Of a stretch of 64,000 nt of DNA, positions 3,045 to 49,393 are shown one piece after another. Numbering within the stretch: position 1 is the first letter of the stretch; each line of letters opens with the position of its first letter. The stretch comes from an uncultured Chloroflexia bacterium. GTDB taxonomy: Bacteria; Chloroflexota; Limnocylindria; Limnocylindrales; CSP1-4. The notes beneath the pieces were generated by a model. That model ran no database searches. It saw only the letters and a list, made by a program, of their open reading frames with translations, and was not told the origin of the DNA. Where the stretch lies: assembly GCA_963813705.1 (NCBI GenBank), contig CAWFAH010000011.1, positions 326,341 through 390,340 on the forward strand, written 5' to 3'. A program made the position numbers and the translations under genes.

Positions 3045-3073
3045 TTGACAGGTTACTTAGCAGTCGCTAAGCT
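3045..3073 (+). promoter_or_regulatory. Candidate sigma70-type promoter of the TetR gene (TTGACA-17 nt-TAAGCT), predicting a leaderless or near-leaderless mRNA
   Basis: TTGACA at 3045-3050, a 17-nt spacer, TAAGCT at 3068-3073. The ATG at 3082 lies only 8 nt after the -10. This is a locally AT-rich patch in a very GC-rich window. Confidence 0.5.
3056..3071. promoter_or_regulatory. Inverted repeat CTTAGC-AGTC-GCTAAG overlapping the TetR promoter spacer/-10 (candidate TetR operator O1)
   Basis: Perfect 6-bp arms with a 4-nt centre, read directly from the sequence. It is related to the palindrome at 3675-3688; both are ACTTAG...CTAA. Confidence 0.45.
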
Positions 3074-3081
3074 CCCGCGAC

Positions 3082-21545: not shown

Positions 21546-21572
21546 CCCGCCCTCCCGGTTCGCCGAAGGATG

Positions 21573-21624
21573 CCGAGTGTACGCCCGGTGGGTCGCTCTG
21601 GCGCCGCCCGGAAGGTACACTCGG
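21573..21624. promoter_or_regulatory. 10-bp inverted repeat CCGAGTGTAC...GTACACTCGG (32-nt spacer) in the divergent dynamin/Hsp70 intergenic region
   Basis: Arms at 21573-21582 and 21615-21624 are exact reverse complements. The region separates the divergent starts at 21545 (-) and 21650 (+). Confidence 0.35.
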
Positions 21625-28581: not shown

Positions 28582-28798
28582 GGCGGCCTCCCTGGGCGGA
28601 TCGTCCGCACAGGGTACGGCGCACGGCGGCCCTCGGGGTCGCGGCCCTGTCGGGGCGACGACCCCGGGCTCGCGTGGACCATGCGCCGCGGCGCGGCGGA
28701 CCGAACGCCGGTCGCGGCCTAGACTGAACCCGGCGAGCGACGACGGGCTATCCATCCCTGCCGACGTCTCGGTCGCGCAGGCACGCACGGGAGGTGGC

Positions 28799-32119: not shown

Positions 32120-32120
32120 C

Positions 32121-34871: not shown

Positions 34872-35767
34872 CCCGAGCGCGGTACGGCGAGGGCGCCCAG
34901 ATCGTGTGCGACAACCTGGTCCGGATCTTCAAGGTCGCGGATCTCGAGGTCGTGGCGCTGCAGGGCCTCGACCTGCTCGTGGAGAAGGGCGAGATGATGG
35001 CCCTCGTCGGGGCGTCGGGCAGCGGCAAGTCGACGCTGCTCAACATCCTCGGCGGCCTCGACGCCCCATCGGCCGGTCGCGCGGTCGTTGCCACGCACGA
35101 CCTCGCCCAGATGGGTCGCCGCGAGCGGACCGCATACCGGCGGCGGGTGGTCGGGATGGTCTGGCAGCAGACGTCGCGGAACCTGCTCCCCTATCTGAGC
35201 GCCCTCGAGAACGTGGAGCTGCCGATGGTCCTCGACGGCCGGGCCGCACGCGGCACGCGGGCGCGCGAGCTGCTCGATCTGGTCGGTCTCGGCGACCGGC
35301 TGGGCCACCGGCCCGAGCGGCTGTCGGGCGGCGAGCAGCAGCGGGTGGCGATCGCGGTCGCGCTGGCGAACGAGCCCGCGGTCATCCTCGCCGACGAGCC
35401 GACGGGCGAGCTCGACAGCGCGACCTCGGCCGACGTGTTCGGGCTGCTCCGGCGGGTGAACGCGGCGTTCGGCACGACGATCGTCGTCGTCACCCACGAC
35501 CCGCTGGTCTCCGAGCAGGTCGCCCGGACGGTCCGTATCCGCGACGGTCGGACGAGCACCGAGACGCGCCGGCGCACGGAACGCGGCGACGACGGCGACC
35601 ATCGGGTCATCGCCGAGGAGTTCGCCCTGCTCGACCGGGTCGGGCGCCTCCAGCTGCCGCGGGCCCACATCGAGAAGCTCGAGCTCGCGGAGCGCGTCCG
35701 GCTCCGGCTCGAGGAGGACCATGTCGGCGTCTGGCCCGATCGGGACGACGACGAGGCGAAGCCATGA
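34868..35767 (+). CDS. ABC transporter ATP-binding protein (MacB/LolD-type) with ~70-aa C-terminal extension
   Basis: Walker A GASGSGKST, signature LSGGEQQR, Walker B ILADEP, H-loop VVVTHD. C-terminal extension DHRVIAEEFALLDRVGRLQLPRAHIEKLELAERVRLRLEEDHVGVWP. 4-nt overlap with the upstream gene. Confidence 0.9.
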   Translation: MTRARYGEGAQIVCDNLVRIFKVADLEVVALQGLDLLVEKGEMMALVGASGSGKSTLLNILGGLDAPSAGRAVVATHDLAQMGRRERTAYRRRVVGMVWQQTSRNLLPYLSALENVELPMVLDGRAARGTRARELLDLVGLGDRLGHRPERLSGGEQQRVAIAVALANEPAVILADEPTGELDSATSADVFGLLRRVNAAFGTTIVVVTHDPLVSEQVARTVRIRDGRTSTETRRRTERGDDGDHRVIAEEFALLDRVGRLQLPRAHIEKLELAERVRLRLEEDHVGVWPDRDDDEAKP

Positions 35768-36471
35768 CCGCCGCCATCCTGCCCCCGAGCGGGCCGATGG
35801 TCGAGGCCGTCGGGGTCGACCGCGACTTCGGATCGGGCGACGCCGTCGTCCATGCCCTGCGCGGGATCGATCTCGCGGTCGGCCGCGGCGAGCTGATCGC
35901 AGTCCGCGGCCGGTCGGGCAGCGGCAAGACCACGCTGCTCAACGTCCTCGGCGGGCTCGATCGTCCGACGGCCGGCCGGGTGACGATCGACGGGGTCGAG
36001 GTGTCGGCGATGGACGAGGCCGAGCTCGTTGACCTGCGTCGCCGGACCGTGGCCTACATCTTCCAGGCGTTCGGCCTGATCCCGATCCTGAGCGCCGCCG
36101 AGAACGTCGAGGTCCCGCTCCGCCTGGTCGCTGCCGAGCCGCGCGAGCGCGACCGGCGGGTGTACGACCTGCTCGAGCTCGTCGGGCTGGCCGAGCGGGC
36201 GCGCCACCGGCCGCACGAGCTGTCGGGCGGCGAGCAGCAGCGGGTCGCGATCGCCCGGGCGCTCGCGAACCGCCCAATGCTGCTGCTCGCCGACGAGCCG
36301 ACCGGGCAGCTCGACTCGGAGACCGGCCACACCATCATGACCCTGATCCGGACGGTGGTCCGGACGGAATCGGTCACCGCCGTGGTTGCGACCCACGACC
36401 CGGCGATGCTCGATGTCGCCGACCGGGTCGTCGAGCTGCGCGACGGTCGCCTTGCCGAGCCCCACGGCTGA
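35764..36471 (+). CDS. Second ABC transporter ATP-binding protein (MacB/LolD-type)
   Basis: ATG at 35764 overlaps the upstream stop (ATGA). Walker A GRSGSGKTT, LSGGEQQR, LLADEP, VVATHD. Confidence 0.9.
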   Translation: MTAAILPPSGPMVEAVGVDRDFGSGDAVVHALRGIDLAVGRGELIAVRGRSGSGKTTLLNVLGGLDRPTAGRVTIDGVEVSAMDEAELVDLRRRTVAYIFQAFGLIPILSAAENVEVPLRLVAAEPRERDRRVYDLLELVGLAERARHRPHELSGGEQQRVAIARALANRPMLLLADEPTGQLDSETGHTIMTLIRTVVRTESVTAVVATHDPAMLDVADRVVELRDGRLAEPHG

Positions 36472-37823: not shown

Positions 37824-37853
37824 GAGGGGGCGCGCCTGACGGCGCGCCCCCTC
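37824..37853. terminator. Perfect 13-bp stem / 4-nt loop hairpin ending the Tad-like gene string
   Basis: GAGGGGGCGCGCC-TGAC-GGCGCGCCCCCTC, 50 nt downstream of the stop at 37903. Confidence 0.6.
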
Positions 37854-37902
37854 CGGGTCTCGGGGACCCGAGGTCCGGGCTCCGGTCAGGAGCCGTCCGG
37901 GA

Positions 37903-38634
37903 CTACTCCCGGCGGTTCCGCCGGCGGGACCGGTTCGACGACGGGCTGAGCAGCCCGACCGCCACGGCGATCCCGAGGAGTGCGATGAGGACGATCGGCA
38001 GGCCGGAACCCGTCCCGCCGTCGGTGGAGCCGTCGATCGTGGCGGTCGGCGGCAAGGTCGTCTTGGGCGTCCCGGTCTCGGCCTCGACCTCACCCGTCGG
38101 CTTCTCCGTCGGGGTGGCTGTCGGCTCGGTCGGCGACGTGGCGGTCGCCGTCGGGGTGGGGGTCGGGGTCGGCGCGTCGGTCGGCGTCGCCGTCGGGGTG
38201 GGGGTCGGGGTGGGGGTCGGGGTCGGCGTCGCCGTCGGGGTGGGGGTCGGGTCCACGCAGGCGCCGATCTTCAGGTCGTACGTCCGGGTCCAGCCATGGC
38301 TGCCCGTCGGGTCGTCTCCCGCGTGGACGTCGACCGTCGCGCTGTGCGGCTGGGTCGGATCGCCAACGGAGTAGGTGTGGACGAAGCTCGATCCGAACGT
38401 GAACGGAGACCCGGCGATCGGGCTGCCGTCGATGCTGATGGCGACGGTGTTCGTGACTCCGCTGTTGTACTGGGTGAGGCTGACCTTGAGGCCCGAGCTG
38501 CAGGTCAGCGTCGCGTTGGGCACGTGGGCGGCGACCGTTCCGATGGTGAACGCCAGGATGATCAGTGAGCCGCCAACGGCCGAAGCGACCCGCCGGAGCA
38601 GATGGCGCTGCCGTCGATCCTTCGATGCGATCAT
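37903..38634 (-). CDS. Secreted T/P-rich surface protein with C-terminal TM + Arg-rich tail (sorting-signal-like)
   Basis: Preferred start is the ATG at 38634 (MIASKDRRQRHLLRRVASAVGGSLIILAFTIGTVAAHV, a signal peptide). ~110-aa globular part, (TP)n linker, then LPPTATIDGSTDGGTGSGLPIVLIALLGIAVAVGLLSPSSNRSRRRNRRE. Alternative in-frame starts at 38679 and 38790. Confidence 0.7.
   Translation of the reverse strand: MIASKDRRQRHLLRRVASAVGGSLIILAFTIGTVAAHVPNATLTCSSGLKVSLTQYNSGVTNTVAISIDGSPIAGSPFTFGSSFVHTYSVGDPTQPHSATVDVHAGDDPTGSHGWTRTYDLKIGACVDPTPTPTATPTPTPTPTPTPTATPTDAPTPTPTPTATATSPTEPTATPTEKPTGEVEAETGTPKTTLPPTATIDGSTDGGTGSGLPIVLIALLGIAVAVGLLSPSSNRSRRRNRRE
38104..38252. repeat. Tandem hexanucleotide (GGGGTS)n repeat encoding the (Thr-Pro)n linker
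   Basis: The plus strand reads ...gtcggggtgggggtcggggtcggcg...gtcggggtgggggtcggggtgggggtcggggtcggc... On the minus strand this translates as PTPTPTATPTPTPTPTPTPTATPTDAPTPTPTPTATAT. Confidence 0.8.
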
Positions 38635-38761
38635 CTCGATCCGATTCCCTTTCCTGTGCCGCGAGCGGCGAACGAGCATTGCGCCTGGACGGCCGGTCGT
38701 CGCGAACCTGGTGAGGATCGGAAGCGGCGCGGTCCCCGAGGAGGCGTCGGGGGACCCAAAT

Positions 38762-38814
38762 GGGTCATCCCTGCCTAGTACCTTAGTCATGGGACCTTAA
38801 CGGCGGACATTACA
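38762..38814 (-). promoter_or_regulatory. Copy A of a conserved AT-rich upstream element (GTAATG-22 nt-TAAGGT-ACTAG)
   Basis: Minus strand: GTAATGTCCGCCGTTAAGGTCCCATGACTAAGGTACTAGGCAGGGATGACCC. About 75% identical to copy B, with an identical 22-nt spacing between GTAATG and a TANNNT hexamer. Confidence 0.5.
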
Positions 38815-38986
38815 TCCGGCTCGATTTCGGCCCTGTTTGATTACCTTCTGTTGTCAGGACGCCACGGATCGATCAGAGCGGATTATTGCGGTCGAGAGCG
38901 GCCCGCATCGGTGTATTTCGGATGACAACGGTGGCGTGCCGTGCGGTCGGCCGCCGCGCGGGTCGCCGGCCCGGACCTGGACTGGA

Positions 38987-39017
38987 CGAAGCCCGCCGGG
39001 CGGTCCGACGGGCTTCG
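38987..39017. terminator. Hairpin after TadG-like gene 1 (CGAAGCCCG ... CGGGCTTCG)
   Basis: 9-bp stem (38987-38995 / 39009-39017), 40 nt downstream of the stop at 39057. The arm sequence is shared with the hairpins at 41629 and 41794. Confidence 0.45.
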
Positions 39018-39056
39018 CTGCTGGCGGCGGCGACCGGGTCGAGCCCGGACGCTCAG

Positions 39057-41399
39057 TCAGGGGACGATGAGATGGACCGGGTTGCCCCGGATGTCGACCT
39101 GCCAGGTCGTCAGGTCGGTGCTGTAGTCGGACGCCGAGCCCGTCCCCATCGTGTACCGAATCTTCCACCAGCCACGCTCGCTGGTCGTGCTGTCGGTCGA
39201 TGGGTGCGGGGCGCTGTAGGTGGGCGGCAGCTGGACCTCGATCGTCAGCCAGCAGCCGTTGTAGAGGCTGTTCCCGCCGGTGTTCGTGGTGATCGACGTC
39301 GCGCCCTTGACCGTGGCGCTGCTGCAGCTCGAGGCGGCGCCGTCGGACGTCCCGCGGGTCGCGTGGTAGTTGAACGCCACGGGCGTGTAGTCCGTCGCGC
39401 CGGGCTGGAGGATCTCGAGCCGCGCCGAGAGCTGCCCGGTGTCGCCCGGATCCCACAGGTTGATGACCATCGTCTTGCCGGCGTGCACCGCGTCGATCTG
39501 GGCGAGGTAGAACTCGGTCGACCGGCCGGCCGGCAACCGGACGTACGCCTCCATCGCGCCGATGCCGTAGACCCGGGGCGTGCCCCCGTTGGCACTGGCG
39601 TAGATCGCGAAGGCGTTGAGAGCGGTCGTGTTGTTCTGGTCGTTCGGGCTGCCCGGATCGGTCGACGAGGTGTGCAGCCGGTAGGTCGTCCCGTTCGCCC
39701 CGCCGGTCAGGCCGCTCGCCAGCTGGTACCAGCCGCGGCGTGGATTGCTCGGGCTGCCGCTCTGCCAGTTCTCGGCGTCGTAGTGCCAGGCCAGGTTGGA
39801 GCAGTCGCCGATCCCGTTCGTCGGGTTCTGGCCGGCGGCCGCGAAGATGCTTCGGTCCTCGTACGACAGGCGTCGGAACGTAGAGCCCGAGCTGGCGATG
39901 GGGTTCCCGTCGTCGGTCGAGTCGTACAGCGTGTTCTTCGTGTCGTAGAGGTCGTAGAACGCGCTCACCGGCTGGCGCGAGCTGTAGCCGTTGGATCCGC
40001 CGACGGTCCAGTTCTCACCGGTGCCGGCCGAGGTCGTCGAGTCGCAGAAGCCCGGATCGAAGACCCAGACCGAGCCGCCGCTCGACCCGGCGGGCATGTC
40101 GATCGCGTAGTTGTAATACGCGTCCGGCAGGTACTGCGCGTCGGGGTCGGTGTTGTCGACGTTGTTCGGCGCGAACCCGGAGCGCGACTCGTAGCGGGTC
40201 ATGTAGGCGTCGCCCTGGATGTTCGGGGCGCCCTGGCTCTGCATCGCGCCCCAGAAGTTCTGGGGTGCGAGCGGCTGGCCCTGCGGCCCGATCATGTCGA
40301 CGTCCTCGAGGTCAGTGGTCGTCGAGGTCGTGACGGTGTGGAACGTCACCCGCACCTCGAGCGTGTCGACGGCCGCGGTCCGGTTGCAGCCTGCGCCGCG
40401 GAGGTTGGTGATCCGGACCCGGAAGAGGTTGTCGGCGAAGTCGCCGCGGATCCAGGCATGCCCGCCCCAGGCCGCGGTCGAGGCCTGGCTGCCGAACGTC
40501 GTCTGGGTCTCGCTCGTGGTGAGGGTCAGCTGCTGGGCGGTGGACCAGGTCGGGCTGCCGACGTTCCCGTTCCAGGTGGTGTCGATCGACAGCCGGCAGT
40601 TCGTCGTCGTCCCGTTGGTGCCGGTCAGACCGGCACGGAGGCGGACCTCGAGCCCGTCGATGATGGCATTGCTCGGGATCCCGTTGTAGCCGAGGAGCGC
40701 GAAGTTGCCCCACAGCTGGGTCGCGTTGTTCGTGCCCGACGTCGCATACCGGTTGTCGTTGTTGCGGTCGGCGTTGTCGGCCTGGTTCCACGACCCGCTC
40801 AGGGCGTTGGCCGCGTCGTCCCAGCCGGTGTCGTCCTGCGGCCCCGAGGTCGTCTTCGTCGTCGACAGGGCGTCGCGCAGGAAGCCGACTCCGTAGTAGT
40901 TCTGCGGGCTGCCCATGGGCACGGGCAGGACGTACTCGGCCTTTGAGGTTCGCGTGGCCGTGATCGTCGGGATCCCGAAGATCCGCATGAAGTAGGTGTT
41001 GATCGGCGCCGAGATCGTCACGTTGAGGCGGCGCTTGTTGTTGGTGTCCTGGACGGGCGTCACCGTGACCCCGCCGTGGTGGTCGTCGTAGCCGTTCTTG
41101 GTCGCCTCGTCGCGGGCGACGCCATACGCGGTCGACGGGTCGCCGGGCAGCCAGACGACGCCGGCCAGGGCGGCAGCGTCGGCCGCGCGCTGGACGCGCA
41201 GGGTGTTCGCCCAGTACCAGCTGACGTCGACGACGATGGCGGTGATCCCGGTCAGGACGAAGATGCTGATGACGAACAGGACGAGCATCTGGCCGCGGGC
41301 CCGGGCGCCCGCGACCGACGGATGAGTTCGCTGGCAAAGCCGGCTCAAAGCCAATCCCCCTGCTTTCGTACGCGCACCGGGATGGGCCATTCGGGTCAT
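39057..41399 (-). CDS. Large TadG-like protein 1 (N-terminal Tad/TadE-type pseudopilin-like TM segment + >700-aa extracytoplasmic region of unknown fold)
   Basis: ARARGQMLVLFVISIFVLTGITAIVVDVSWYWANTLRVQRAADAAALAGV matches the TadG/Tad_N N-terminus. KAEYVLPVPMGSP follows. The paralogue at 41866..44202 is colinear over the full length and shares the C-terminal GNPVHLIVP. Confidence 0.75.
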   Translation of the reverse strand: MTRMAHPGARTKAGGLALSRLCQRTHPSVAGARARGQMLVLFVISIFVLTGITAIVVDVSWYWANTLRVQRAADAAALAGVVWLPGDPSTAYGVARDEATKNGYDDHHGGVTVTPVQDTNNKRRLNVTISAPINTYFMRIFGIPTITATRTSKAEYVLPVPMGSPQNYYGVGFLRDALSTTKTTSGPQDDTGWDDAANALSGSWNQADNADRNNDNRYATSGTNNATQLWGNFALLGYNGIPSNAIIDGLEVRLRAGLTGTNGTTTNCRLSIDTTWNGNVGSPTWSTAQQLTLTTSETQTTFGSQASTAAWGGHAWIRGDFADNLFRVRITNLRGAGCNRTAAVDTLEVRVTFHTVTTSTTTDLEDVDMIGPQGQPLAPQNFWGAMQSQGAPNIQGDAYMTRYESRSGFAPNNVDNTDPDAQYLPDAYYNYAIDMPAGSSGGSVWVFDPGFCDSTTSAGTGENWTVGGSNGYSSRQPVSAFYDLYDTKNTLYDSTDDGNPIASSGSTFRRLSYEDRSIFAAAGQNPTNGIGDCSNLAWHYDAENWQSGSPSNPRRGWYQLASGLTGGANGTTYRLHTSSTDPGSPNDQNNTTALNAFAIYASANGGTPRVYGIGAMEAYVRLPAGRSTEFYLAQIDAVHAGKTMVINLWDPGDTGQLSARLEILQPGATDYTPVAFNYHATRGTSDGAASSCSSATVKGATSITTNTGGNSLYNGCWLTIEVQLPPTYSAPHPSTDSTTSERGWWKIRYTMGTGSASDYSTDLTTWQVDIRGNPVHLIVP
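41146..41303. repeat. Near-identical 158-bp block shared with 43970-44127 (5' ends of the two TadG-like genes)
   Basis: 3 mismatches in 158 bp (41160, 41175, 41187). 41188-41303 is identical to 44012-44127 (116 bp). The flanks on both sides are clearly diverged. Confidence 0.85.
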
Positions 41400-41446
41400 T
41401 CCGGGACTAGTACGTTAGTCAGGGGATCATTTCGCCCGACATTACA
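41393..41446 (-). promoter_or_regulatory. Copy B of the conserved upstream element (GTAATG-22 nt-TAACGT-ACTAG), ending at the TadG-like 1 ATG
   Basis: Minus strand: GTAATGTCGGGCGAAATGATCCCCTGACTAACGTACTAGTCCCGGAATGACCC. The ATG at 41399 is 12 nt after the TANNNT hexamer, which predicts a near-leaderless mRNA. Confidence 0.5.
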
Positions 41447-41628
41447 GAAGGGCCTTCGGGCACCGTCCGGCCCACGTTGTGGTGCGCGCCGGCCCCGTGC
41501 CGGAGCGGTTTGCCGGGCTGCGGGGTGGACGGGGTTGCCGGGGTGCCTTGCGCCGGGGTCCTCGGGGCTCCGGTGGGCTCCGGCGCGGAGCGGTGGAGCG
41601 CCGTGGTCGCAGTCCGCCGGGGGGACAG

Positions 41629-41667
41629 CACGAAGCCCGCCGGGGCTGGGTTCCGGCGGGCTTCGTG
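41629..41667. terminator. Perfect 15-bp stem hairpin inside the 466-bp spacer between the TadG-like genes
   Basis: CACGAAGCCCGCCGG-GGCTGGGTT-CCGGCGGGCTTCGTG. Confidence 0.5.
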
Positions 41668-41793
41668 GTCGGGAGGGGCCGGGACCCGGGTCCCGACAGG
41701 GGTCAGCGTGCGATCTCGGATGCCCACGGTGCGGCGTCGACCTTTCGGACCGCTTTTCGAGGGTGCGCCGGGGCACCGCCAGGTCCGCGACAC

Positions 41794-41826
41794 GACGAAG
41801 CCGCCGGACGTGCCGGCGGCTTCGTC
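41794..41826. terminator. Perfect 14-bp stem / 5-nt loop hairpin 40 nt downstream of the TadG-like gene 2 stop
   Basis: GACGAAGCCGCCGG-ACGTG-CCGGCGGCTTCGTC. Confidence 0.6.
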
Positions 41827-41865
41827 AGAGTCCGTGTCTGGAGGGGCCGCCCGGCGGCCCGGTCG

Positions 41866-44202
41866 TCAGGGGACGATCAGGTGGACGGGGTTGCCCTTGA
41901 TCTGGACCTTCCAGGTCGTGACGTCGTTCGAGGTCCCCGACCCGGTCATGTTGTACTTGATCTTCCACCAGCCGCTCTGCTGGGCCGTGTAGCCGATCGG
42001 GATGACGACATCGATCGTCAGCCAGCAGCCGTTGAACTGCGAGGTGGGGTTGGCGGTCACGATCGAGCTGACCGCGCTCCCGCTCGCCCCGTTGCAGCTC
42101 GCCGTTCCCGAGGCCGACGTGCCGACGGCCGACGACCAGTCGATGGTCGTGGGCGTCCAGCCCGACGAGGTCGGGATCTCGATCTGGAGGTTGGCGCTGA
42201 GGGGGCTGGTGTCACCCGGATCCCAGAGCTTGATCTCCATCGTCTTGCCCGCGTGGACCGCCTCGATCTGGGCGAGGTAGAACTCGGAGAACGTCGACCC
42301 GCCCGATGCCGACAACGGGGTGAACATCTGCATCGCGCCCAGGCCATAGATCTTCGGCGTCCCGCCGCTCGCGCTGGCGTAGAGGGCGAAGCTGCTCTCG
42401 CCGTTCGTGTTGCGCTGCTGGGCCAGGTTGGACGGGTCGGTCGAGGTCGTGTGGAGCCGGTAGACCGTGCCGTTCGCACCGCCGCTGAGCCCGGTGTACA
42501 GCCGGTACCAGCGGTCGTGGTAGTCGCGCCCGTCGCCGTACTGCGTGGCGGTCGTGTACTTGCACTCCGAGCCGCCGCTGCCGCCCATCGACGTGTCCGA
42601 GGCGGAGATCTGCTTGAACAGCCCGCCCGAGCTCGCCAGCTGGGTGTCGTCGGTGATGTCGTAGAGGGTGTTCTGCGTGTTGTAGAGCTCGAACATCGAG
42701 GACACGCCGTTCGTCCCGCTGAACCAGCGGTCGCCGGTTCCCTTGCTGACCGAGACGGCGCAGAAGACGGGGTCGTAGACGTAGACGCTGCCGTTCGTCG
42801 TGCCGGGCGGCATCTCGACGGCGTAGTTGTAGTAGTTGTCCTCGTCGTAGCACGCCCGGTCGCCGGTGGCGGTGCTGCAGGCCGGAGCCGTCGCCGACGT
42901 CGGCGTGTCGTAGTACGGCTGGAAGGCGTCGCCGTTGATGTTCGCGGCCCCCTCGGTGTTCATCGTGGCCCAGAAGCCGCGCGGGTTGAGCGTGGCGCCG
43001 TCGGCCTCGTAGCAGCTGCCCTTGCCGGTGGTGCAGGCGCTGCCCGGGCCCTGGAGGTTCTGGTCGGGCAGCGTCGTGGTCGTCGTGATCGGCGTCGGGG
43101 TCGCGGTGTCGATCGTGTAGTAGACGCGGATCTCGAGCATGTCGAGTCGCAGCAACGTCCCGGCCGCGCACGACGAACCGCTCTTGAGCGCCGTCGTCCG
43201 GATTCGGATCGGGTCGGTCGCGCTCGTCAGGTCGCCGGGAACCCAGGCGTGGCCGCCCCAGGCCGCCAGCGAGGTGGCGCTGCCCAGCGTGTAGTCAGTG
43301 GTGTTGGTCGTCGTCAGCGTGCCAGTCTGAGTGGCCGTCGTCGTCCAACTCGTGCCTCCGTTCCACGACAGGGCGACCTGGATCCGGCTGCTGGCACAGC
43401 CCGACGCGGTCATGTAGGCATCGCTCAGCCGGACCTGGATGCCGTCGATCGAACTGACCGACTGGCTGCCGCTCAAGCTCGGTGGGAGCGCGAACGTTCC
43501 CCACTGCTGGACGGCGCCAGTCGTGTTCGTCTGGGCGTAGACGTTGTCCGTCGCGCTACCGACCGCGTTGACCAGCGTCCCGCTCGACGTCGACCACCCG
43601 GCCGCGCCCGGCGCTGCGGTGGGCACTTTCCAACCGGTGTCGTCGCTCGACGAGTTGTGGACGATCTGGATCGACGTGCTCGTCGACGTCAGCCCGCGGG
43701 TCAGCCCGAAGTTCCCGTAGTAGTTCTCCGGGCTGCCCATCGGCACCGGCAGGACGTATTCGGCCTTCGACTGGCGAGTCGCCTGGATCGACTGGATGCC
43801 GAAGATCTTCATGAAGAACGTGTTGACCGGGGCGCTGATCGTGACCCACAGGCGCCGGTTGTTGGACGGGTCCTTGACGCTTGTGATCGACACGCCGTTG
43901 ACACCGTCGGTGTAGCCGTTCTGGGTGGCGGTCGTGGCGGCGGTCGCGTAGGCGCTGCCCGGCGCACCCGGCAGCCAGACGACACCGGCCAGGGCGGCGG
44001 CGTCGGCCGCACGCTGGACGCGCAGGGTGTTCGCCCAGTACCAGCTGACGTCGACGACGATGGCGGTGATCCCGGTCAGGACGAAGATGCTGATGACGAA
44101 CAGGACGAGCATCTGGCCGCGGGCCCGAAGCCGTGAGCGGCCGTCCGCGACACGCCGCCTGGCGGCGCGGAGGGTGGTGGCCAGCTGGCCCAGGGGACCC
44201 AT
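41866..44202 (-). CDS. Large TadG-like protein 2 (paralogue of 39057..41399)
   Basis: RLRARGQMLVLFVISIFVLTGITAIVVDVSWYWANTLRVQRAADAAALAGVVWLPG is identical to paralogue 1 over this stretch. KAEYVLPVPMGSPENYYG. C-terminal WWKIKYNMTGSGTSNDVTTWKVQIKGNPVHLIVP. GGAG lies 9 nt upstream of the ATG at 44202, 13 nt after the TadE-like stop. Confidence 0.75.
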   Translation of the reverse strand: MGPLGQLATTLRAARRRVADGRSRLRARGQMLVLFVISIFVLTGITAIVVDVSWYWANTLRVQRAADAAALAGVVWLPGAPGSAYATAATTATQNGYTDGVNGVSITSVKDPSNNRRLWVTISAPVNTFFMKIFGIQSIQATRQSKAEYVLPVPMGSPENYYGNFGLTRGLTSTSTSIQIVHNSSSDDTGWKVPTAAPGAAGWSTSSGTLVNAVGSATDNVYAQTNTTGAVQQWGTFALPPSLSGSQSVSSIDGIQVRLSDAYMTASGCASSRIQVALSWNGGTSWTTTATQTGTLTTTNTTDYTLGSATSLAAWGGHAWVPGDLTSATDPIRIRTTALKSGSSCAAGTLLRLDMLEIRVYYTIDTATPTPITTTTTLPDQNLQGPGSACTTGKGSCYEADGATLNPRGFWATMNTEGAANINGDAFQPYYDTPTSATAPACSTATGDRACYDEDNYYNYAVEMPPGTTNGSVYVYDPVFCAVSVSKGTGDRWFSGTNGVSSMFELYNTQNTLYDITDDTQLASSGGLFKQISASDTSMGGSGGSECKYTTATQYGDGRDYHDRWYRLYTGLSGGANGTVYRLHTTSTDPSNLAQQRNTNGESSFALYASASGGTPKIYGLGAMQMFTPLSASGGSTFSEFYLAQIEAVHAGKTMEIKLWDPGDTSPLSANLQIEIPTSSGWTPTTIDWSSAVGTSASGTASCNGASGSAVSSIVTANPTSQFNGCWLTIDVVIPIGYTAQQSGWWKIKYNMTGSGTSNDVTTWKVQIKGNPVHLIVP
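43970..44127. repeat. Near-identical 158-bp block shared with 41146-41303
   Basis: See the partner feature. The offset between the copies is 2824 bp. Confidence 0.85.
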
Positions 44203-44215
44203 CGTGTCGTACTCC

Positions 44216-44803
44216 CTAGCTCGGGTTGAGGGCCATGACGGTCCGATCGGACATCTGGAAGGCCGGGGTGCCGGCCATGCCGAGGAAGATCCCGAGCGGG
44301 CTGATCAGCTTGTAGCTGTAGACGAGGCTCACCCCGATCGAATCGGGGCTCGCGCCGTTGTCGCGGCCGCAGGCGTTCCAGTTGACGGTGGTCGACTTGA
44401 AGATGAGGGGCACGCCGTCGACCGTCGGGCCGGCGCCCGGGATCCAGGTGTTGACGCTCGAGCCGACCTGGTTGCCATTCGCATCGGCCTTGTAGATCTT
44501 GACCGCGCTGATCCGGCTGATGACGACCGGCGAACCGGGGCTCGTCAGGACGCGCTGGACGCCGGCCACGATCTGGTCGTCGACCTGGGCGCACGGGACG
44601 TTGGTGGTCCCGGGCCCGAGGGCCGCGCCGACGCGGGCACCCTCACGGGTCGCGTACTCCAGGGTCAGGTTGTGGCTGAAGGCGAAGCCGAACTCGAGCA
44701 TTCCGAACAGGAGCATCACGAACACCGGCACGGAGACGGCGAACTCGACCAGCCCCTGGCCGCGACTGCCGGCCCGCCGGTCGGCGAAGCGGCGGCAGCT
44801 CAC
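44216..44803 (-). CDS. TadE-like pseudopilin protein 2
   Basis: N-terminus RAGSRGQGLVEFAVSVPVFVMLLFGMLEFGFAF carries the TadE family signature (G/Q-x-L-V-E-F plus a hydrophobic helix). 4-nt overlap with the upstream TadE-like gene. Confidence 0.75.
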   Translation of the reverse strand: MSCRRFADRRAGSRGQGLVEFAVSVPVFVMLLFGMLEFGFAFSHNLTLEYATREGARVGAALGPGTTNVPCAQVDDQIVAGVQRVLTSPGSPVVISRISAVKIYKADANGNQVGSSVNTWIPGAGPTVDGVPLIFKSTTVNWNACGRDNGASPDSIGVSLVYSYKLISPLGIFLGMAGTPAFQMSDRTVMALNPS

Positions 44804-45399
44804 AGGACGGGCTCCATCCGCATCGCGTTCGACTCGACGAGGGTGTAGCTCGTGGTGCCCAGCCCGATGAACGAGCCGAGCGGGGTGAACGGGGTGTAGG
44901 CGTACGTGATCTTGACTCCGATCGTGTCGACCCCGCCCGAACCCGAGCAGCCGCCCTGGACGTTGCAGCGGCTCGTCTCGGGGTAGCCGGCGGCGCCGCT
45001 CAGCGTGTACGGGACCGTGAGCGTCGTGCTATCCGGGAGGGTGCACGTCTTCGAGCCGGAGCGGACGTACGTGTTGACCTTGCCGGTGAGGGGGTTGCCG
45101 GTCTTGCCCGCCTGGTAGATGTCGACCTGGGTGATCCGGGTCGTGCTGGCCGGCGCGCCGATCCCCTGCTCGACCTTGTTGAGGATCACGCAGTCGGACC
45201 CGACGGCATTGCCGGCCTCGGCCGCAATGAGCGATCCGTCACGGCTCGCGAAGTTGATGCTGAGCATCGCGTTGAACACCAGCCCGAACTCGATCATCCC
45301 CATGAGGAGGACGAAGAAGATCGGGAAGACCAAGGCGAACTCGACCAGGGTCTGTCCCCGATCGGTTGGCCGGTGCTTCGCGCGGAACAAGGTCTTCAC
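44800..45399 (-). CDS. TadE-like pseudopilin protein 1
   Basis: GTG start. KHRPTDRGQTLVEFALVFPIFFVLLMGMIEFGLVFN carries the TadE family signature. Confidence 0.75.
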   Translation of the reverse strand: MKTLFRAKHRPTDRGQTLVEFALVFPIFFVLLMGMIEFGLVFNAMLSINFASRDGSLIAAEAGNAVGSDCVILNKVEQGIGAPASTTRITQVDIYQAGKTGNPLTGKVNTYVRSGSKTCTLPDSTTLTVPYTLSGAAGYPETSRCNVQGGCSGSGGVDTIGVKITYAYTPFTPLGSFIGLGTTSYTLVESNAMRMEPVL

Positions 45400-45471
45400 T
45401 GCGGCGCGCTCTTCCCATCTCGTGGCTGTCCGAGCGAGACGACCCCGGTTGCGGGGCGGTGCCGTGGACAG

Positions 45472-45512
45472 TTCCTAGCCTAGGAAGCAGGACCTTTCGC
45501 GCCGCATTACGA
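45472..45512 (-). promoter_or_regulatory. Copy C of the conserved upstream element (GTAATG-22 nt-TAGGCT)
   Basis: Minus strand: CTTTCGTAATGCGGCGCGAAAGGTCCTGCTTCCTAGGCTAGGAAC. About 75 nt upstream of the TadE-like 1 start, directly after the kinase terminator hairpin. Confidence 0.45.
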
Positions 45513-45537
45513 AAGTGCGCGACTGCACAGCCCGATC

Positions 45538-45557
45538 GTCCGGGGGCAGCCCCGGAC
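45538..45557. terminator. Hairpin GTCCGGGG-GCAG-CCCCGGAC 6 nt downstream of the kinase stop
   Basis: 8-bp stem and 4-nt loop, read directly from the sequence. Confidence 0.5.
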
Positions 45558-45562
45558 CTTCG

Positions 45563-47782
45563 TCAGGCCGGCTGGTCGGAGCGCTCGGCCGGAACGGTGA
45601 AGCGGAACCCGGCGCCGCCCCTCGGGGCGGGCACGTAGCGGATCGAGCCGCCCATCGCGCGGACCAGGCCGCGGGCCACGTCGAGCCCGAGCCCGGTGCC
45701 CTCGAGGCCCTCGCTCGTCGAGCCGCGCTCGAACCGGCGAAAGACTCGGGCCCGCTCGTCCGGGGCGATCCCGGGACCCTCGTCCCAGACCGTGATGGCG
45801 ATCCGTTCCTCGCCGTCGTCCGGCTCGAGGACGACGCCGATCGCGCCGCTGGGCGCGTACTTGATGGCGTTGTCGAGGAGCATCCAGGCGACCTGCTCGA
45901 GGGCGGCTCGGTCGGCGACCGCGACCATCCCGTCGGTCCGATCGTCGAGCGCGAACGGACGGCTCGAGCGGAGCGATGTCCAGACTCGCTGGATGATCGG
46001 CCCCGGGGCGATCGGCTCCTCCTCGACCCGCAGGGTCCCCGACTCGAGCCGTGACAGGGTCAGCAGCTGGCCGACCAGGCGGGCCAGGCGGTCGGCCTCG
46101 GAGCGGATCACCCGCGCGCCCTCGCGCGCGTGATCATCCGTGCGTTCCGCCGTGGCGAGCTCGTCGGCGACGACCACGATGTTGGTCAGCGGAGCCTGGA
46201 GGTTGTGGCTGACGCCGCGGAGGAAGTCCCCTTGGAGCCGAGCCAGCCGGCCGAGCCGGTCGACCCGGTCGAGGGTCCGGGCGTGGACGGTCGCGTCGTC
46301 GGCGGCGGCACGGAGCAGGCGAGCGTAGACGTCGAGGAGCGCCTGGTCCGCCTCGGACCACTCGTGCCCGGCTGGCAGGTGGCCGACGAGACGGAGGTCA
46401 CGCGGGCCGGCCGGGCTTCCGGCACCGACGGGGCCGAGCGCCGCGACGATCGTTCGACCGGGCGGCGTCGCTCCGGCGGCTGGAGCGGGTGTCGCCGCGT
46501 CCGCCGCGTCGGGCCCATCCGGCGCCGGAGAATGAGCCGCCGTCGCCGGCCAGCGGGCGACGACGACCCCACCCTCGTCCTCGAGCGACGCGTCGACGAG
46601 CTCGAAGATCCGGGCCGCGGCGCGCACCCCGTCGGCCTCGACCCGGGCAACTCCGAGGTCCGGCGCCAGGTCGCCCGCGGCCGCGATCGCCTCGCGCAGG
46701 ACCCGGTCCCGGCGGGCCAGGGTTGCGGCCATCCGGTCCAGCGCGGTCGCCAGCCGGCCGATCTCGTCGCGGTCGTCGCCCGGCAGGCGGACATCGAGGT
46801 CGCCCGCCGCCATGGCGCTGAGACCGCCCTCGATCGCATCGAGGCTCAGGCGGAGGCGGCGGCCGAGGAGGATCGCCAGGAGCGCCGCGGCGAGCACCGC
46901 CAGCGCCAGGCCCGCGCCGAGCAGCGGCACGAGCCGGCTGCCGACGGTCTGGACGCCGGCGACGCGCATCGTCGCGACGAACCAGCCCGCAGGCTGGCCG
47001 TCGATCGCGTGGAGCGCCATCGCCCCGCCGACCAGGCCCGCCCGGATCTCGGGAGCCCCGTCCGTGCCGTCCACCGGGACGCCCGGCACGAAGGTCATCG
47101 CGGCGGTCTGGTCGCTGGCGACGCGCAGCGTGCGCGATCGGTCGAAGATGGCCCCGTCGAAGCCGGTGACCTGGCGGGCGTCAACCACGAACGCTGGGTC
47201 GAGCCGCCGGGCGAAGGCGAGCCCGACCGGCCCGTCGCCCGCCACCAGGACGCCCGGTCCGGACCGGCCGGTCAGGTCGACGGACTGGACATCGATCAGG
47301 TAGACCCCATCGCCGAGGTCCGCGTAGATGGGGCCGGACGCGGGTCCGGGCGGCCGGGCCAGGGCCACGACGCCGAGACGGGCGAGCTCCGTTGCGGCCG
47401 CCGACGGTCCGCCGGAGACCGTGCGGTCCCCGACGAGGAGGACGACCACGTCAGCCTCGCCCTGATCGACCTGGAACTGGATCACGTCGCGCCGGATCGA
47501 CTCGAGGTCGTACTTGGCGATCTCGTCCTGGAGGACCGGCCAGGTCACGTAGCTGTCGACCGTCTTGCGGAGGTCCGAGTTGTCGCGATCGAGGACGGCC
47601 TCGACGCCGCGGACGGCCGTGCGCGCCTGCGCGAGCGCCTCCTCGCCGACGACGTCCTCGACGGAGCGCAGCGCGGCGAACCCGAAGACGGCGAGCGGGA
47701 TCACCGCGACGAGCAGGAGGACGACGATGACCTGACGGCGATAGGTGACGCCCCGGGCGCCCCAGCGCGGACCCGTGGGCAC
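45563..47782 (-). CDS. Membrane sensor histidine kinase (TM, large periplasmic region, TM, HAMP, linker, HisKA, HATPase_c)
   Basis: TM VIVVLLLVAVIPLAVFGFAAL and LVPLLGAGLALAVLAAALLAILLG. HAMP LSLDAIEGGLSAMAAGDLDVRLPGDDRDEIGRLATALDRM. H-box VSHNLQAPLTNI. N-box LLDNAIKYAPSG. G-boxes DEGPGIAP and GTGLGLDVA. GTG start 9 nt after the RR stop. Confidence 0.9.
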   Translation of the reverse strand: MPTGPRWGARGVTYRRQVIVVLLLVAVIPLAVFGFAALRSVEDVVGEEALAQARTAVRGVEAVLDRDNSDLRKTVDSYVTWPVLQDEIAKYDLESIRRDVIQFQVDQGEADVVVLLVGDRTVSGGPSAAATELARLGVVALARPPGPASGPIYADLGDGVYLIDVQSVDLTGRSGPGVLVAGDGPVGLAFARRLDPAFVVDARQVTGFDGAIFDRSRTLRVASDQTAAMTFVPGVPVDGTDGAPEIRAGLVGGAMALHAIDGQPAGWFVATMRVAGVQTVGSRLVPLLGAGLALAVLAAALLAILLGRRLRLSLDAIEGGLSAMAAGDLDVRLPGDDRDEIGRLATALDRMAATLARRDRVLREAIAAAGDLAPDLGVARVEADGVRAAARIFELVDASLEDEGGVVVARWPATAAHSPAPDGPDAADAATPAPAAGATPPGRTIVAALGPVGAGSPAGPRDLRLVGHLPAGHEWSEADQALLDVYARLLRAAADDATVHARTLDRVDRLGRLARLQGDFLRGVSHNLQAPLTNIVVVADELATAERTDDHAREGARVIRSEADRLARLVGQLLTLSRLESGTLRVEEEPIAPGPIIQRVWTSLRSSRPFALDDRTDGMVAVADRAALEQVAWMLLDNAIKYAPSGAIGVVLEPDDGEERIAITVWDEGPGIAPDERARVFRRFERGSTSEGLEGTGLGLDVARGLVRAMGGSIRYVPAPRGGAGFRFTVPAERSDQPA

Positions 47783-47791
47783 GAGGCCTCG

Positions 47792-48484
47792 TCAGCCGGC
47801 GGCGACCAACCGGTAGCCCCCGCTCCGGTCGGTCAGGAGATGTCTCGGATCGTCCGGGTCGACCTCGATCTTGCGCCGGAGCCGGCGGATCGCGACCCAC
47901 ACGTACGCCGGATCGGCGCCGTCGGCGTCGCTCCACACCCGGGCCAGCAGCTGCTCGGTCGTGATGGTCGTGCCGAGGTTCGCCGCAAGAGTCGCCAGCA
48001 GTCGCGTCTCGGTCGGCGACAGCCCGATCGTCCGACCGGCGACGATCGCCTCGCGGCGGCGGAGGGCGAGCGACAGGTCGGGGCCGAGATCGAGCAGCTC
48101 GCTCGGGATCCGCTCGTTCAGGCGGCGCAGGACCCGGTGGACGCGGGCGACCAGCTCGGGGTAGTCGAACGGCTTAGTGACGTAGTCCTCGGCGTAGTGC
48201 TCGATGAGCTCCGTCTTCGAGCGCGACGTCGCGACCGCCGAGAGGACCACGATCGGGATGTCGGCACGCCGCTTGATCCCGGCCGCGACCTCCTCCCCGG
48301 ACACGCCAGGCATCATCAGGTCGAGCAGGACCAGGTCCGGCCACGCGTCGTCCACGGCCGCCAGGGCATCCGGGCCGGAGCCGGCAATCGTGACGTCGAA
48401 CCCGTCGCGACGCAGCCGGGCGCCGAGGAACTGGGTCAGCTGCGCGTCGTCGTCGACGAGCAGGAGGCGGTGACGCTGGGTCAT
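47792..48484 (-). CDS. OmpR/PhoB-family response regulator
   Basis: MTQRHRLLLVDDDAQLTQFLGARLRRDGFDV...LVLLDLMMPGVSGEEV. Winged-helix LSPTETRLLATLAANLGTTITTEQLLARVW...VWVAIRRLRRKIE...GYRLV. The ATG at 48484 overlaps the upstream stop (ATGA). Confidence 0.9.
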   Translation of the reverse strand: MTQRHRLLLVDDDAQLTQFLGARLRRDGFDVTIAGSGPDALAAVDDAWPDLVLLDLMMPGVSGEEVAAGIKRRADIPIVVLSAVATSRSKTELIEHYAEDYVTKPFDYPELVARVHRVLRRLNERIPSELLDLGPDLSLALRRREAIVAGRTIGLSPTETRLLATLAANLGTTITTEQLLARVWSDADGADPAYVWVAIRRLRRKIEVDPDDPRHLLTDRSGGYRLVAAG

Positions 48485-49194
48485 GGCCGGAGGCCGTCGT
48501 CTCCGCTTCCGCCGCCGGAGGTGGTCCCGTCCAACGAGCCACCGGTCGGCGTCCCGCCGGTCGTGGAGCCGCCGGTGACCGTCCCGCCGGTCAGGCTGCC
48601 GCCGGTCCCGCTGATCCCGCCGGTCGCGGTTCCGGTGCCCGCGCTGCCGCCGTCGACCGGCTGGCTGGCAATCGTCGTGGACACGGCATGCGGTGGATCG
48701 GGCCGGCGAAGGATCACCGGCCGGCTCGTGGGCTTCGGATCGGCCGTCCCGGCCTGACCGCCCTCGGCCGCGACGACGACCGGCGCAGGACTCGCGATCG
48801 GCCGCGGCGCGGGGACGTCGTCGGCCTCGCTCGTCGGCGCGAACCGGACGAGCAGGCTGGTCGGCGGCCCGCCGGTGCTGACGCGGACCCACACCGTCAG
48901 CCGGGCGCCGATGAACACGGTCCAGGTCCCGGCGTGACCGCTCTCCCGATAGCCGGCCCGGAGGAGCTGGCTGGCATACGCCCCGATCGTCGCGTCGGGC
49001 GACAGGTCGGAGTCGTAGCTGAAGAAGCTCCCCGGCCCGTCGAAGCCGGGCCCGGTCGACCCCAGCTCCAGGGTGGCCAGACGCGGCTGCGGGAGGCCGG
49101 CGAGGTCGGCCGGCTCGCCGACGCCGCCGAACGGCGTCGGCGTCGGCGTCGGTCCGCCGGGGTTGCAGGCGGCCAGAACGACCGTCGCCAGCAC
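48481..49194 (-). CDS. Putative lipoprotein with C-terminal xxTGG pentapeptide repeats; true start probably upstream of the annotated GTG
   Basis: Lipobox VVLAAC sits right at the ORF start. The in-frame upstream codons read LNSINPAHRLGLSILAV-LATVVLAAC, which would be an ideal signal peptide, but no ATG/GTG/TTG is available. There is a CTG at 49242 with AAGGG 7 nt upstream. The C-terminus is GTGTATGGISGTGGSLTGGTVTGGSTTGGTPTGGSLDG. Confidence 0.65.
   Translation of the reverse strand: MLATVVLAACNPGGPTPTPTPFGGVGEPADLAGLPQPRLATLELGSTGPGFDGPGSFFSYDSDLSPDATIGAYASQLLRAGYRESGHAGTWTVFIGARLTVWVRVSTGGPPTSLLVRFAPTSEADDVPAPRPIASPAPVVVAAEGGQAGTADPKPTSRPVILRRPDPPHAVSTTIASQPVDGGSAGTGTATGGISGTGGSLTGGTVTGGSTTGGTPTGGSLDGTTSGGGSGDDGLRP
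48484..48655. repeat. 15-bp periodic repeat encoding about six xxTGG pentapeptides
   Basis: On the plus strand the octamer ccgccggt recurs about every 15 nt between roughly 48550 and 48640. Confidence 0.6.
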
Positions 49195-49393
49195 GGCGAG
49201 GATCGACAGGCCGAGGCGGTGCGCGGGATTGATCGAGTTCAGTCGAGTGCCCTTCAGATCGGTCGCCGGTCGGTGGTCCTTTCCGTCGACCTGACAATCC
49301 TAGCGTCCCGGGACCGGCCAGCCCATCCCAAACCGTCGTCCTGGTCGCGGATGGCCCGAAAGGCGTGGCCCAGACGCACCGCGCGGCGACGCG

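Follow-up and report, generated by a model that had tools for sequence, protein, structure and literature searches.

The genes considered here lie on the minus strand, at 37.8-49.3 kb of a 64,000-nt stretch of contig CAWFAH010000011.1 from an uncultured Chloroflexia bacterium. This stretch, called the window below, has a G+C content of ~72%. The genes encode two TadE-like proteins, two large TadG-like proteins, a response regulator (RR) and a sensor histidine kinase (HK) forming a two-component system, a lipoprotein, and a threonine- and proline-rich (T/P-rich) surface protein. All eight minus-strand genes had been listed in a first-pass annotation made from the sequence alone, and all were recovered as open reading frames (ORFs), the key assignments being confirmed by Pfam. 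As argued below, the locus is probably a satellite cassette of a Tad (type IVc, Flp) pilus, with genes for alternative tip (initiation) complexes; the core of this pilus would be encoded elsewhere in the genome.

The locus begins with a lipoprotein-RR-HK operon. The lipoprotein gene (48481..49194) encodes a LAAC lipobox and C-terminal xxTGG repeats, and its stop codon (48481-48483) overlaps the start codon of the RR gene (48484-48482). The RR, of the OmpR/PhoB family (47792..48484), contains Response_reg and Trans_reg_C domains. The HK (45563..47782) carries HAMP, HisKA and HATPase_c domains, together with an extracytoplasmic sensor of ~270 amino acids (aa) of unknown type. Directly 3' of the kinase stop lies a hairpin with 13-bp arms that are 85% complementary (45533..45562; hairpins are given without a strand), a terminator candidate devoid of a T-run. 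Next come TadE-like 1 (44800..45399), TadE-like 2 (44216..44803) and TadG-like 2 (41866..44202); the two TadE genes overlap by 4 nt and a gap of 13 nt separates the second of them from TadG-like 2. Two hairpins with perfect arms of 14 bp and 8 bp (41794..41826 and 41844..41860, respectively) follow TadG-like 2. TadG-like 1 (39057..41399) and the T/P-rich gene (37903..38679) complete the set, the latter being followed by a hairpin with perfect 13-bp arms (37824..37853). The hairpins after the kinase, TadG-like 2 and T/P-rich genes were thus found where the first pass had placed them. No canonical σ70 promoter or T-run terminator was scored on the minus strand, and an Rfam scan of 37-50 kb gave no family at E <= 1.

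Both TadE-like proteins are of ~195 aa and contain the TadE domain PF07811 (E 2.8e-14 for TadE-like 1 and 4e-15 for TadE-like 2); the pair scores 56.1 and 53.4 bits, for a Pfam gathering cut-off of 22.9 bits. Their prepilin sites, DRG/QTLVEF in TadE-like 1 and SRG/QGLVEF in TadE-like 2 (the slash marks the predicted cut), are each followed by a hydrophobic helix. The site of TadE-like 1 is near-identical to that of the Flp pilin of the lineage, EDG/QTLVEY, as encoded in the core loci described below. TadE1 and TadE2 belong to separate orthogroups, TadE1 always being first and TadE2 always second in a cassette. On the basis of this gene order, TadE-like 2 may occupy a TadF-like second position.

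The N-termini of the two large proteins, which are of ~780 aa each, match the "Tad" domain PF13400 (32.1 and 32.5 bits, cut-off 22.3 bits; E ~1e-7 for each). Together with the TadE matches, this bears out the assignment of TadE/TadG-type N-termini by the first pass, for which hidden Markov model (HMM) searches had been proposed as a check. In TadG-like 2 the leader ends in RARG/QMLVLF. PF13400 was matched in 50/50 members of the large-protein family, at least 90% of the family have G-Q in the leader, and the consensus reads RGQVLVIFA. Hence the missing Glu+5 is a trait of the whole family. The first pass had noted that Leu replaces this Glu in the two large proteins; Glu+5 is indeed absent, but its absence is the norm for the family and not a peculiarity of these two. 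GspK, the largest subunit of the pseudopilus tip of the type II secretion system (T2SS), reportedly lacks Glu+5 as well. The start of TadG-like 1 lies between 41399 and ~41346. A 777-aa form of the window's large protein, starting at Met4, is found on ENA ERZ25039551:contig_29262 and on a 1.1-Mb contig. A start at M38, as called in L001, was rejected: the near-invariant G-Q site lies 5' of M38.

Homologues of the large protein were searched among 5.8 billion proteins. More than 1286 matches were obtained, and the best 120 of them, which were inspected, are full-length and 46-95% identical. Among these 120, nearly all are labelled just PF13400 and those with a name come from Chloroflexota or "Candidatus Limnocylindrales" metagenome-assembled genomes (MAGs). 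The ~750-aa proteins therefore form a large Chloroflexota family, carried by Limnocylindria-type MAGs, with shorter relatives in Actinomycetota. No full-length family member found derives from a cultured isolate. In an alignment of 50 sequences, 60 columns are invariant, four Cys and numerous Asp, Trp and His residues among them. TadG-like 1 and TadG-like 2 are old paralogues with an overall identity of 52%; their N-terminal modules (N-module) are 78% identical, their middle domains 38.5% and their C-terminal domains (C-domain) 50.6%.

The structure of TadG-like 1 was modelled with AlphaFold2 (AF2) using the 50-sequence alignment; the mean predicted local distance difference test (pLDDT) is 88.1 and the predicted template modelling score (pTM) is 0.69. 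The model comprises a long helix α1 (residues 2-44), a second helix (51-64) and strands between residues 75 and 122 (pLDDT ~75-90), and is all-β beyond ~122. A pilin-like fold, made of a long α1 and a small β-sheet module, is thus predicted for the N-terminal region. On the DNA, the pilin-like N-module is encoded at 40890-41288, a variable β-sandwich, the candidate carbohydrate-binding module (CBM)-like domain, at 40284-40880, and a conserved tandem β-sandwich at 39060-40271. At the very end of the latter lies the extreme C-terminal strand GNPVHLIVP (39060-39086), whose counterpart in TadG-like 2 is at 41869-41895.

A Foldseek search of the PDB with the whole chain retrieved reelin repeats, a CBM22 tandem, CBM4, CBM11, CBM86, discoidin, BcsB and phage tail-tip proteins. 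The CBM4, CBM22, reelin-type and discoidin jelly rolls have a probability of 0.93-0.99, the highest value of the whole set being 0.99, and per-domain TM-scores are ~0.45. The C-terminal 408 aa modelled alone (pLDDT 85.7, pTM 0.85) gave weak double-jelly-roll matches, with PBCV-1/SGIV capsid proteins, PNGase F, PHM and CUB pairs, at a probability <0.4. Because the C-terminal 408 aa gave weak matches only, the CBM-like domain is most likely the middle one (residues ~137-335); we regard this domain as probably CBM-like. Its fold suggests binding to a polysaccharide or another surface ligand. The C-domain itself appears from the model to be a tandem β-sandwich that has neither a Pfam family nor a close solved relative. 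Pfam detected no domain beyond the N-terminus in any of the 50 family members. Searches for sequence relatives in the PDB gave none with the single protein, and a profile search returned chance-level matches (E ~0.6).

Two candidate folds were tried and discarded. An enzymatic fold of the C-terminal 408 aa was rejected, the PNGase F, PHM, glycoside hydrolase family 101 (GH101) and capsid matches all having a probability <0.4 and a TM-score <0.25. A von Willebrand factor A (vWA) body with a MIDAS motif (metal ion-dependent adhesion site) was also rejected, given the lack of any Pfam match in 50 members, the all-β model and the lack of a Rossmann-type Foldseek match. The first pass had not found a vWA motif in the large proteins either, and the jelly rolls returned by Foldseek agree with it.

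The distribution of the C-domain was analyzed with a full HMMER scan of 1.84 billion representatives, which yielded 868 clusters (439 at E <= 1e-10). Full-length matches carry the C-domain at the C-terminal end of proteins of 450-820 aa. Three forms occur among the 75 loci retrieved by tblastn that are described below. The form composed of N-module, middle domain and C-domain is that of Limnocylindria-type Chloroflexota. A form made of N-module and C-domain, with no middle domain, is present in other Chloroflexota, in Acidimicrobiia (including Aquihabitans sp. McL0605), in some Actinomycetes and in Acidobacteriota MAGs, and also in Actinospongicola halichondriae. The third form, the N-module joined to the last ~200 residues only, is found in many Actinomycetota, including the cultured Phycicoccus sp. 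HDW14. Every homologue examined ends with TTW-x6-G[ND]P[VI][HR]L[VI]x(P), which either reaches the stop or stands a few residues before it; this motif holds in all those of the loci L001-L065 that carry a C-domain, from Chloroflexota, Actinomycetota and Acidobacteriota MAGs. By analogy, the invariant terminal motif fits the C-terminal β-strand needed for tip assembly in CpaL, GspK and PilY1.

Trimers of TadE-, TadF- and TadG-type proteins with a large, variable TadG form the tips of Tad pili, as described for CpaJ/K/L of Caulobacter crescentus (PMC12607857, PMC12918778). According to a 2026 study, the extreme C-terminal β-strand of PilY1/PilC, GspK and CpaL/TadG completes the minor-pilin tip complex by strand complementation (PMC12918778 / PMC13533445). 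In CpaL the C-terminal strand is required for piliation and the middle region of ~470 residues is largely dispensable (PMC12918778 / PMC13533445).

Within this framework, the following assembly can be proposed. A prepilin peptidase would cleave TadE1, TadE2 and one large TadG-like protein behind their conserved Gly (G/Q), and the N-terminal helices of the three would then pack together, giving a trimer by which the Flp filament is primed and capped. The apical subunit would be the large protein, which lacks Glu+5 and is the counterpart of CpaL/TadG, KilN and GspK, its β-sandwich body of ~600 residues sitting exposed atop the tip. Its last residues, G-N-P-V-H-L-V-x-P, would fold back as a β-strand to complete the tip complex. 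Finally, the two large paralogues would provide two alternative heads on one TadE pair; that two tips share one pair is proposed because the docking module is 78% identical and the exposed domains 38-51%.

Gene context was examined in relatives whose loci, compared with the window, are labelled L001-L083. The context set comprises 75 loci from species-representative genomes, retrieved by tblastn, in all of which genes were called and clustered; the vicinity of core genes was judged within 10 kb of the cassette. The closest relative, L001, is 95% identical and fully syntenic. In most loci a TadE-type gene, usually two, lies directly 5' of the large gene, and relatives have 2-3 cassettes per locus. 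For instance, L003/L004 show the order TadE-TadE-TadG(734), TadE-TadG(460), TadE-TadE-TadG(812), and in L017 three cassettes stand one behind the other. Like the window, L006 and L020 have tandem large genes with a single TadE pair. PF13400 genes of another, shorter class (~460 aa) were observed in L002-L005, L011, L016 and L020 ("c5" genes, for example L002 7246-8628). They usually have one TadE gene and a GCAAGGT box ahead and are interleaved with the large-protein cassettes.

CpaF, TadB and TadC within 10 kb were found in L019 only for the full-length type (21 distinct loci) and in L056 and L057 only for the type composed of N-module and C-domain. L019 has the order HK-RR(LuxR)-Flp-CpaB/RcpC-TadZ-CpaF-TadB-TadC-TadE-TadE-large TadG, with each assignment verified by Pfam. 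Its large TadG is 37% identical to the window protein over the full length and is the last gene of the operon. L056 and L057 contain shorter homologues that adjoin full tad loci. In addition, a CpaB/RcpC-like gene (SAF and RcpC domains) stands directly 3' of the large gene in L021-L024 and L028 (for example L022 11662-12552), and L030 has one (2129-3151) just upstream of the cassette. Because of L019 and of the CpaB-like neighbours, the large-protein family belongs to Tad pili. Location away from the machinery is nevertheless usual and membership of a tad operon is the exception. The first pass had held that homologues routinely sitting in complete tad loci would speak against its view; L019, L056 and L057 are such cases, but exceptional ones, ~90% of the loci being orphan.

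Two side observations on context may be recorded. The CpaB-bearing loci are otherwise devoid of a tad core, and the next genes look, from their sequence starts alone, like dephospho-CoA kinase, an ABC-F protein, Fpg and PolA. In Acidimicrobiia, a TadE-TadG pair occupies a fixed orphan site (L037, L039 from Aquihabitans sp. McL0605, L041, L045, L049 and L050), the neighbours of which, judged in the same way, look like ribosomal proteins L21/L27, Obg and ProB.

The core machinery was then sought in the lineage. With the CpaF of L019 as query, 8000 matches were obtained; identity is 85-100% for the best 120, several of which bear the name "Candidatus Limnocylindria". CpaF is, with more than 120 clusters at 85-90% identity, widespread in the lineage. 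A core locus was described from a sample of four contigs (ENA series ERZ250394xx-ERZ250395xx), with the order HK-RR(GerE)-DnaJ-like-Flp-CpaB-TadZ-CpaF-TadB-TadC-RR(OmpR)-HK-[box]-TadE-(x)-TadE-TadG(411 aa). No secretin was found within ±10 kb of the core loci, and hence the core locus looks to be of monoderm type. The core TadG (411 aa) has the same RGQ leader as the large proteins; its body is different and Cys-rich, and the GNPVHL tail is absent. CpaB, TadZ, TadB/C, RR and HK are split or truncated in L080, L082 and L083 and intact in L081; these split genes look like assembly frameshift errors rather than pseudogenes.

When the main ORFs of the 64-kb window were scanned with Pfam, no T2SSE, T2SSF or Peptidase_A24 domain was detected. 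A six-frame scan of the window for G-x4-E-[FY] followed by a hydrophobic stretch detected the two TadE genes and nothing else; since the prepilin motif is found in these two genes only, the window has no Flp pilin. These scans agree with the first pass, which had seen neither Flp nor an ATPase or platform gene in this stretch. The usual companions of TadE genes, flp, tadA/cpaF, tadB/C and tadV, are thus missing from the 64-kb window and are present in the relative L019.

Several points weigh against the proposal of a satellite tip cassette. About 90% of the homologous loci have no core tad genes within 10 kb, and flp, cpaF/tadA, tadB/C, tadZ, cpaB and A24 peptidase genes were not found in the 64 kb. 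The presence of flp, cpaF, tadB/C and a prepilin peptidase in this genome is thus presumed, and an A24 prepilin peptidase was not seen within ±10 kb of the lineage core loci. Likewise, we infer the trimer, the processing, the strand insertion, the tip location and the ligand. The CBM-like call is drawn from TM-scores of ~0.45, the domain from which these matches originate being deduced. The C-terminal tail has a pLDDT <50 in the monomer, and is scored as strand when the full chain is modelled but as coil when the C-domain is modelled alone; such low confidence would be expected if the tail needs partners, and is not proof of it. Finally, binding of the RR to the promoter box, described below, is deduced from architecture and co-location only.

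The main rival is a pilus-independent, membrane-anchored role. In this case the N-termini would be signal-anchors and the proteins would form a surface complex, a membrane-held adhesin or sensor, with no Flp filament. The orphan state of ~90% of the loci, the window included, would be accounted for directly, as would the apparent position of the Acidimicrobiia TadE-TadG pair between rpmA and obg and the lack of Glu+5 in the large proteins. TadG of A. actinomycetemcomitans was moreover reportedly first described as membrane-anchored and not cleaved by TadV, which counts on the same side. However, the TadE partners keep a complete prepilin site, close to the Flp site of the lineage, and the large proteins likewise retain G-Q. 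Homologues end complete tad operons (L019), the invariant C-terminal strand motif matches a requirement of tip assembly, and the same box and RR family occur at the TadE-TadE-TadG genes of the core tad locus. We consider a pilus-independent role unlikely.

As for decay, the distal part of the core locus is reproduced by the order RR-HK-box-TadE-TadE-TadG, so that the cassettes could be seen as functionless, decaying duplicates of its minor-pilin end. In comparison with L001, however, the ratio of non-synonymous to synonymous substitution rates (dN/dS) is 0.23 for TadE1, 0.14 for TadE2, 0.15 for TadG-like 1 and 0.29 for TadG-like 2. Values of 0.14-0.29 against this 95%-identical relative mean that all four genes are under purifying selection. 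The reading frames are intact, more than 1286 homologues exist, the alignment retains its 60 invariant columns and the promoter boxes are conserved. Decay is therefore very improbable.

The promoter regions share a common element. A lineage-wide box, GCAAGGT-N5-GCAAGGT-N9-TAnnnT, was read from the regions 5' of 34 TadE1-type genes. In 535 kb of Chloroflexota loci, both strands being searched, it was observed 4 times with 0 mismatches, 14 times with <=1 mismatch and 37 times with <=2 mismatches, as compared to means of 0, 0.1 and 3.0, respectively, in 100 shuffles. All 14 matches with <=1 mismatch are upstream of cassette genes: 13/14 are at 54-230 nt from a TadE or TadG start, and the remaining one precedes an unannotated gene of a cassette cluster in L005, for a protein of ~800 aa. 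In the core locus of L080, L081 and L083, a perfect box separates the RR-HK pair from the TadE genes.

Three elements of the window have the same 7-5-7-9-6 layout as the lineage-wide box. E3 (45477..45510, minus strand), 5' of TadE-like 1, reads GTAATGC-GGCGC-GAAAGGT-CCTGCTTCC-TAGGCT. E1 (41412..41445, minus strand), 5' of TadG-like 1, reads GTAATGT-CGGGC-GAAATGA-TCCCCTGAC-TAACGT. E2 (38780..38813, minus strand), 5' of the T/P-rich gene, reads GTAATGT-CCGCC-GTTAAGG-TCCCATGAC-TAAGGT. That the transcription units share an upstream element, as the first pass had proposed, thus holds for E1-E3. We take the three to be diverged copies of the lineage-wide box, as their sequences indicate. The window-element pattern occurs 3 times in the window and 0 times in 100 shuffles, the pattern having been derived from those three copies. 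L001 retains E1, and the E1/E2 form recurs almost unchanged in L011, whose large protein is only 48% identical.

The E1/E2 core TGACTAAGGTACTAG was also considered as a wider motif and discarded: it occurs in the window, L001 and L011 only, with a weak match in L017, and the direct-repeat box upstream of it is the conserved feature. Just 3' of E1 and E2, a stretch GATGACCC-N4-GGG(T/C)C is conserved (41385-41405 and 38750-38775, minus strand; also in L011 at ~2398-2425), with a possible 5-bp stem. As it is out of frame with the T/P-rich ORF, GATGACCC is non-coding. Further upstream, at 49262-49295 (minus strand), a box-like GTCAGGT-CGACG-GAAAGGA stands 5' of the lipoprotein-RR-HK operon, with no -10-like TAnnnT after it; this repeat could be an autoregulation site or a chance occurrence.

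Besides L001, nine further Chloroflexota cassette loci encode RRs that are 54-70% identical to that of the window. In L012 the order RR-HK-TadE-TadE-TadG is as in the window, and the sensor part of the kinase is 34% identical. The window RR is also 55% identical to the OmpR-type RR within the core tad locus L081, directly upstream of the perfect box, and the recognition helix YVWVxxRRLRxK is conserved across the compared RRs. Regulators of the OmpR/PhoB family use pho-box promoters, in which two direct repeats at -35 are combined with a -10-like hexamer. The box described here resembles them in its two direct repeats of 7 bp, spaced by roughly one helical turn, in the TAnnnT that follows and in the adjacent OmpR/PhoB-family RR. 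In contrast, the repeat is GCAAGGT (GTAATG/GAAAGG in the window) and the period is 12 bp instead of 11 bp. Because the box is of pho-box type and stands beside this RR family, comparative evidence supports one regulon under the adjacent RR. The control by this RR that the first pass had suggested is thus credible from the conservation of the RR and its co-location with the box, the binding itself being a prediction.

In the proposed mechanism, the adjacent two-component system would set expression: the phosphorylated RR would bind the two direct repeats, which replace the -35 element, at promoters ahead of TadE1, TadG-like 1 and the T/P-rich gene. The box varies among cassettes: the window has GTAATG/GAAAGG, whereas most other cassettes share GCAAGGT with the core locus. 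A more speculative extension, which we put forward tentatively, is signal-gated tip switching, where the sensor kinase/RR of each cassette and its box variant would let signals choose which head caps a single Flp pilus.

The two remaining genes of the locus are accessory. The T/P-rich protein combines a signal peptide, a two-Cys domain of ~100 aa, a T/P linker, a C-terminal transmembrane helix and an Arg-rich tail. Its ORF extends to 38790, and its start is probably at 38679 because the L001 product has 258 aa. It has no Pfam family, and NCBIfam gave far-sub-threshold low-complexity TonB matches only; for the lipoprotein, neither a Pfam nor an NCBIfam family was found. In the clustered loci both proteins are conserved in L001 only. 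They were therefore rejected as conserved parts of the module, in which the first pass had included them. The lipoprotein is a lineage-specific accessory and the T/P-rich protein a co-regulated accessory of the species group, its gene carrying a box (E2) though it is not conserved with the cassette.

This shared box bears on another rival, a short piston pseudopilus comparable to that of the T2SS. TadE/TadE/TadG would then cap a non-extending Flp stub that drives cargo through the wall, and the T/P-rich protein could be its cargo. The large proteins do share features with GspK, in being the largest subunit, in lacking Glu+5 and in having a candidate C-terminal strand, and T2SS-like delivery has been discussed for the Kil tips (PMC12075869). 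On the other hand, the T/P-rich protein brings a signal peptide of its own, is anchored in the membrane by its C-terminus and is not conserved with the cassette. A CBM-like head of ~600 residues is also more typical of tip adhesins than of T2SS tips. A piston is thus quite improbable.

Other genes of the window were noted. On the plus strand, at 28580-36471, genes for an FtsX-domain permease of 1179 aa, for a protein of 916 aa that matches no Pfam family and for two ABC ATPases adjoin the cassette, as also in L001 and L011; the pair of giant genes thus stands beside the cassette in L011 too, whose TadG is just 48% identical. Farther away, 7552-8682, 17628-19607, 19707-21620 and 23532-25013 encode a receiver-adenylate/guanylate cyclase, a cellulose-synthase-like glycosyltransferase of family GT2 with a PilZ domain, and two dynamin-family GTPases.

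With the satellite tip cassette as the preferred explanation, the locus can be compared with characterized systems. Myxococcus has four paralogous kilLMN tip clusters, one within kil cluster II and three separate, and the variable domains of KilN have been proposed to act as interchangeable heads on one Flp pilus (PMC12075869). Homologues of the Kil tips detectable by sequence are confined to Myxococcota (PMC12075869). KilL/KilM/KilN of Myxococcus xanthus (Herrou et al., 2025) resemble the present cassettes in having two small TadE/TadF-type proteins and one large TadG-type protein with a variable exposed domain. A further likeness, drawn from gene layout, is the occurrence of several paralogous cassettes, mostly apart from the core machinery. 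In contrast, the cassettes described here belong to Chloroflexota, with a core locus devoid of secretin and no link to predation or to a type III secretion system. Their head is made of β-sandwiches or jelly rolls and not of the KilN fold, two large subunits go with one TadE pair, and a dedicated two-component system and a defined promoter box accompany the cassettes.

CpaJ/K/L and A. actinomycetemcomitans TadE/F/G share with the window proteins a pilin-like N-module, a G/A-x4 prepilin site and a large middle region predicted to be atop the tip; CpaL also ends in a conserved extreme C-terminal β-strand, to which the terminal motif of the window proteins may correspond. However, the body of CpaL/TadG is a vWA domain with MIDAS and two small β-barrels; here vWA and MIDAS are absent, and the body is made of a probably CBM-like β-sandwich and a tandem β-sandwich. 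Moreover, CpaL is encoded with the machinery, unlike the window cassette. In GspI/J/K and PilY1/PilC, the largest subunit is likewise apical and supplies the C-terminal strand that completes the tip (PMC12918778), but these systems belong to another branch of type IV filaments and have no sequence similarity with the present proteins, PilY1 itself being no pilin.

These comparisons support the view of the first pass that the large proteins are tip-like and that the genes form a Tad-type minor-pilin module. They do not support its statement that the combination corresponds to no characterized system: it is matched by the CpaJ/K/L and KilL/M/N tips, and that statement is outdated by work of 2025-26. 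The feature is real and well conserved; it belongs to a known kind, the minor-pilin complexes of Tad tips encoded as satellites, and is not a system of its own.

Metagenome-assembled genomes are the only form in which Limnocylindria-type Chloroflexota are known here. On the reading preferred here, exchangeable tips on one Tad machine would extend to a second, unrelated phylum, in which the core locus has no secretin. An uncharacterized β-sandwich family would be the exposed head of the tip, and its hallmark is the invariant motif of the C-terminal strand. In the core locus and in satellites alike, tip genes stand behind one direct-repeat box next to one family of OmpR-type RRs; by means of box and RR family, the regulon can be tested directly and all tip cassettes of a genome can be sought. 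If tip switching were true, these soil bacteria would have a programmable adhesin repertoire on one machine, by means of a domain family of 868 clusters that has no Pfam entry.

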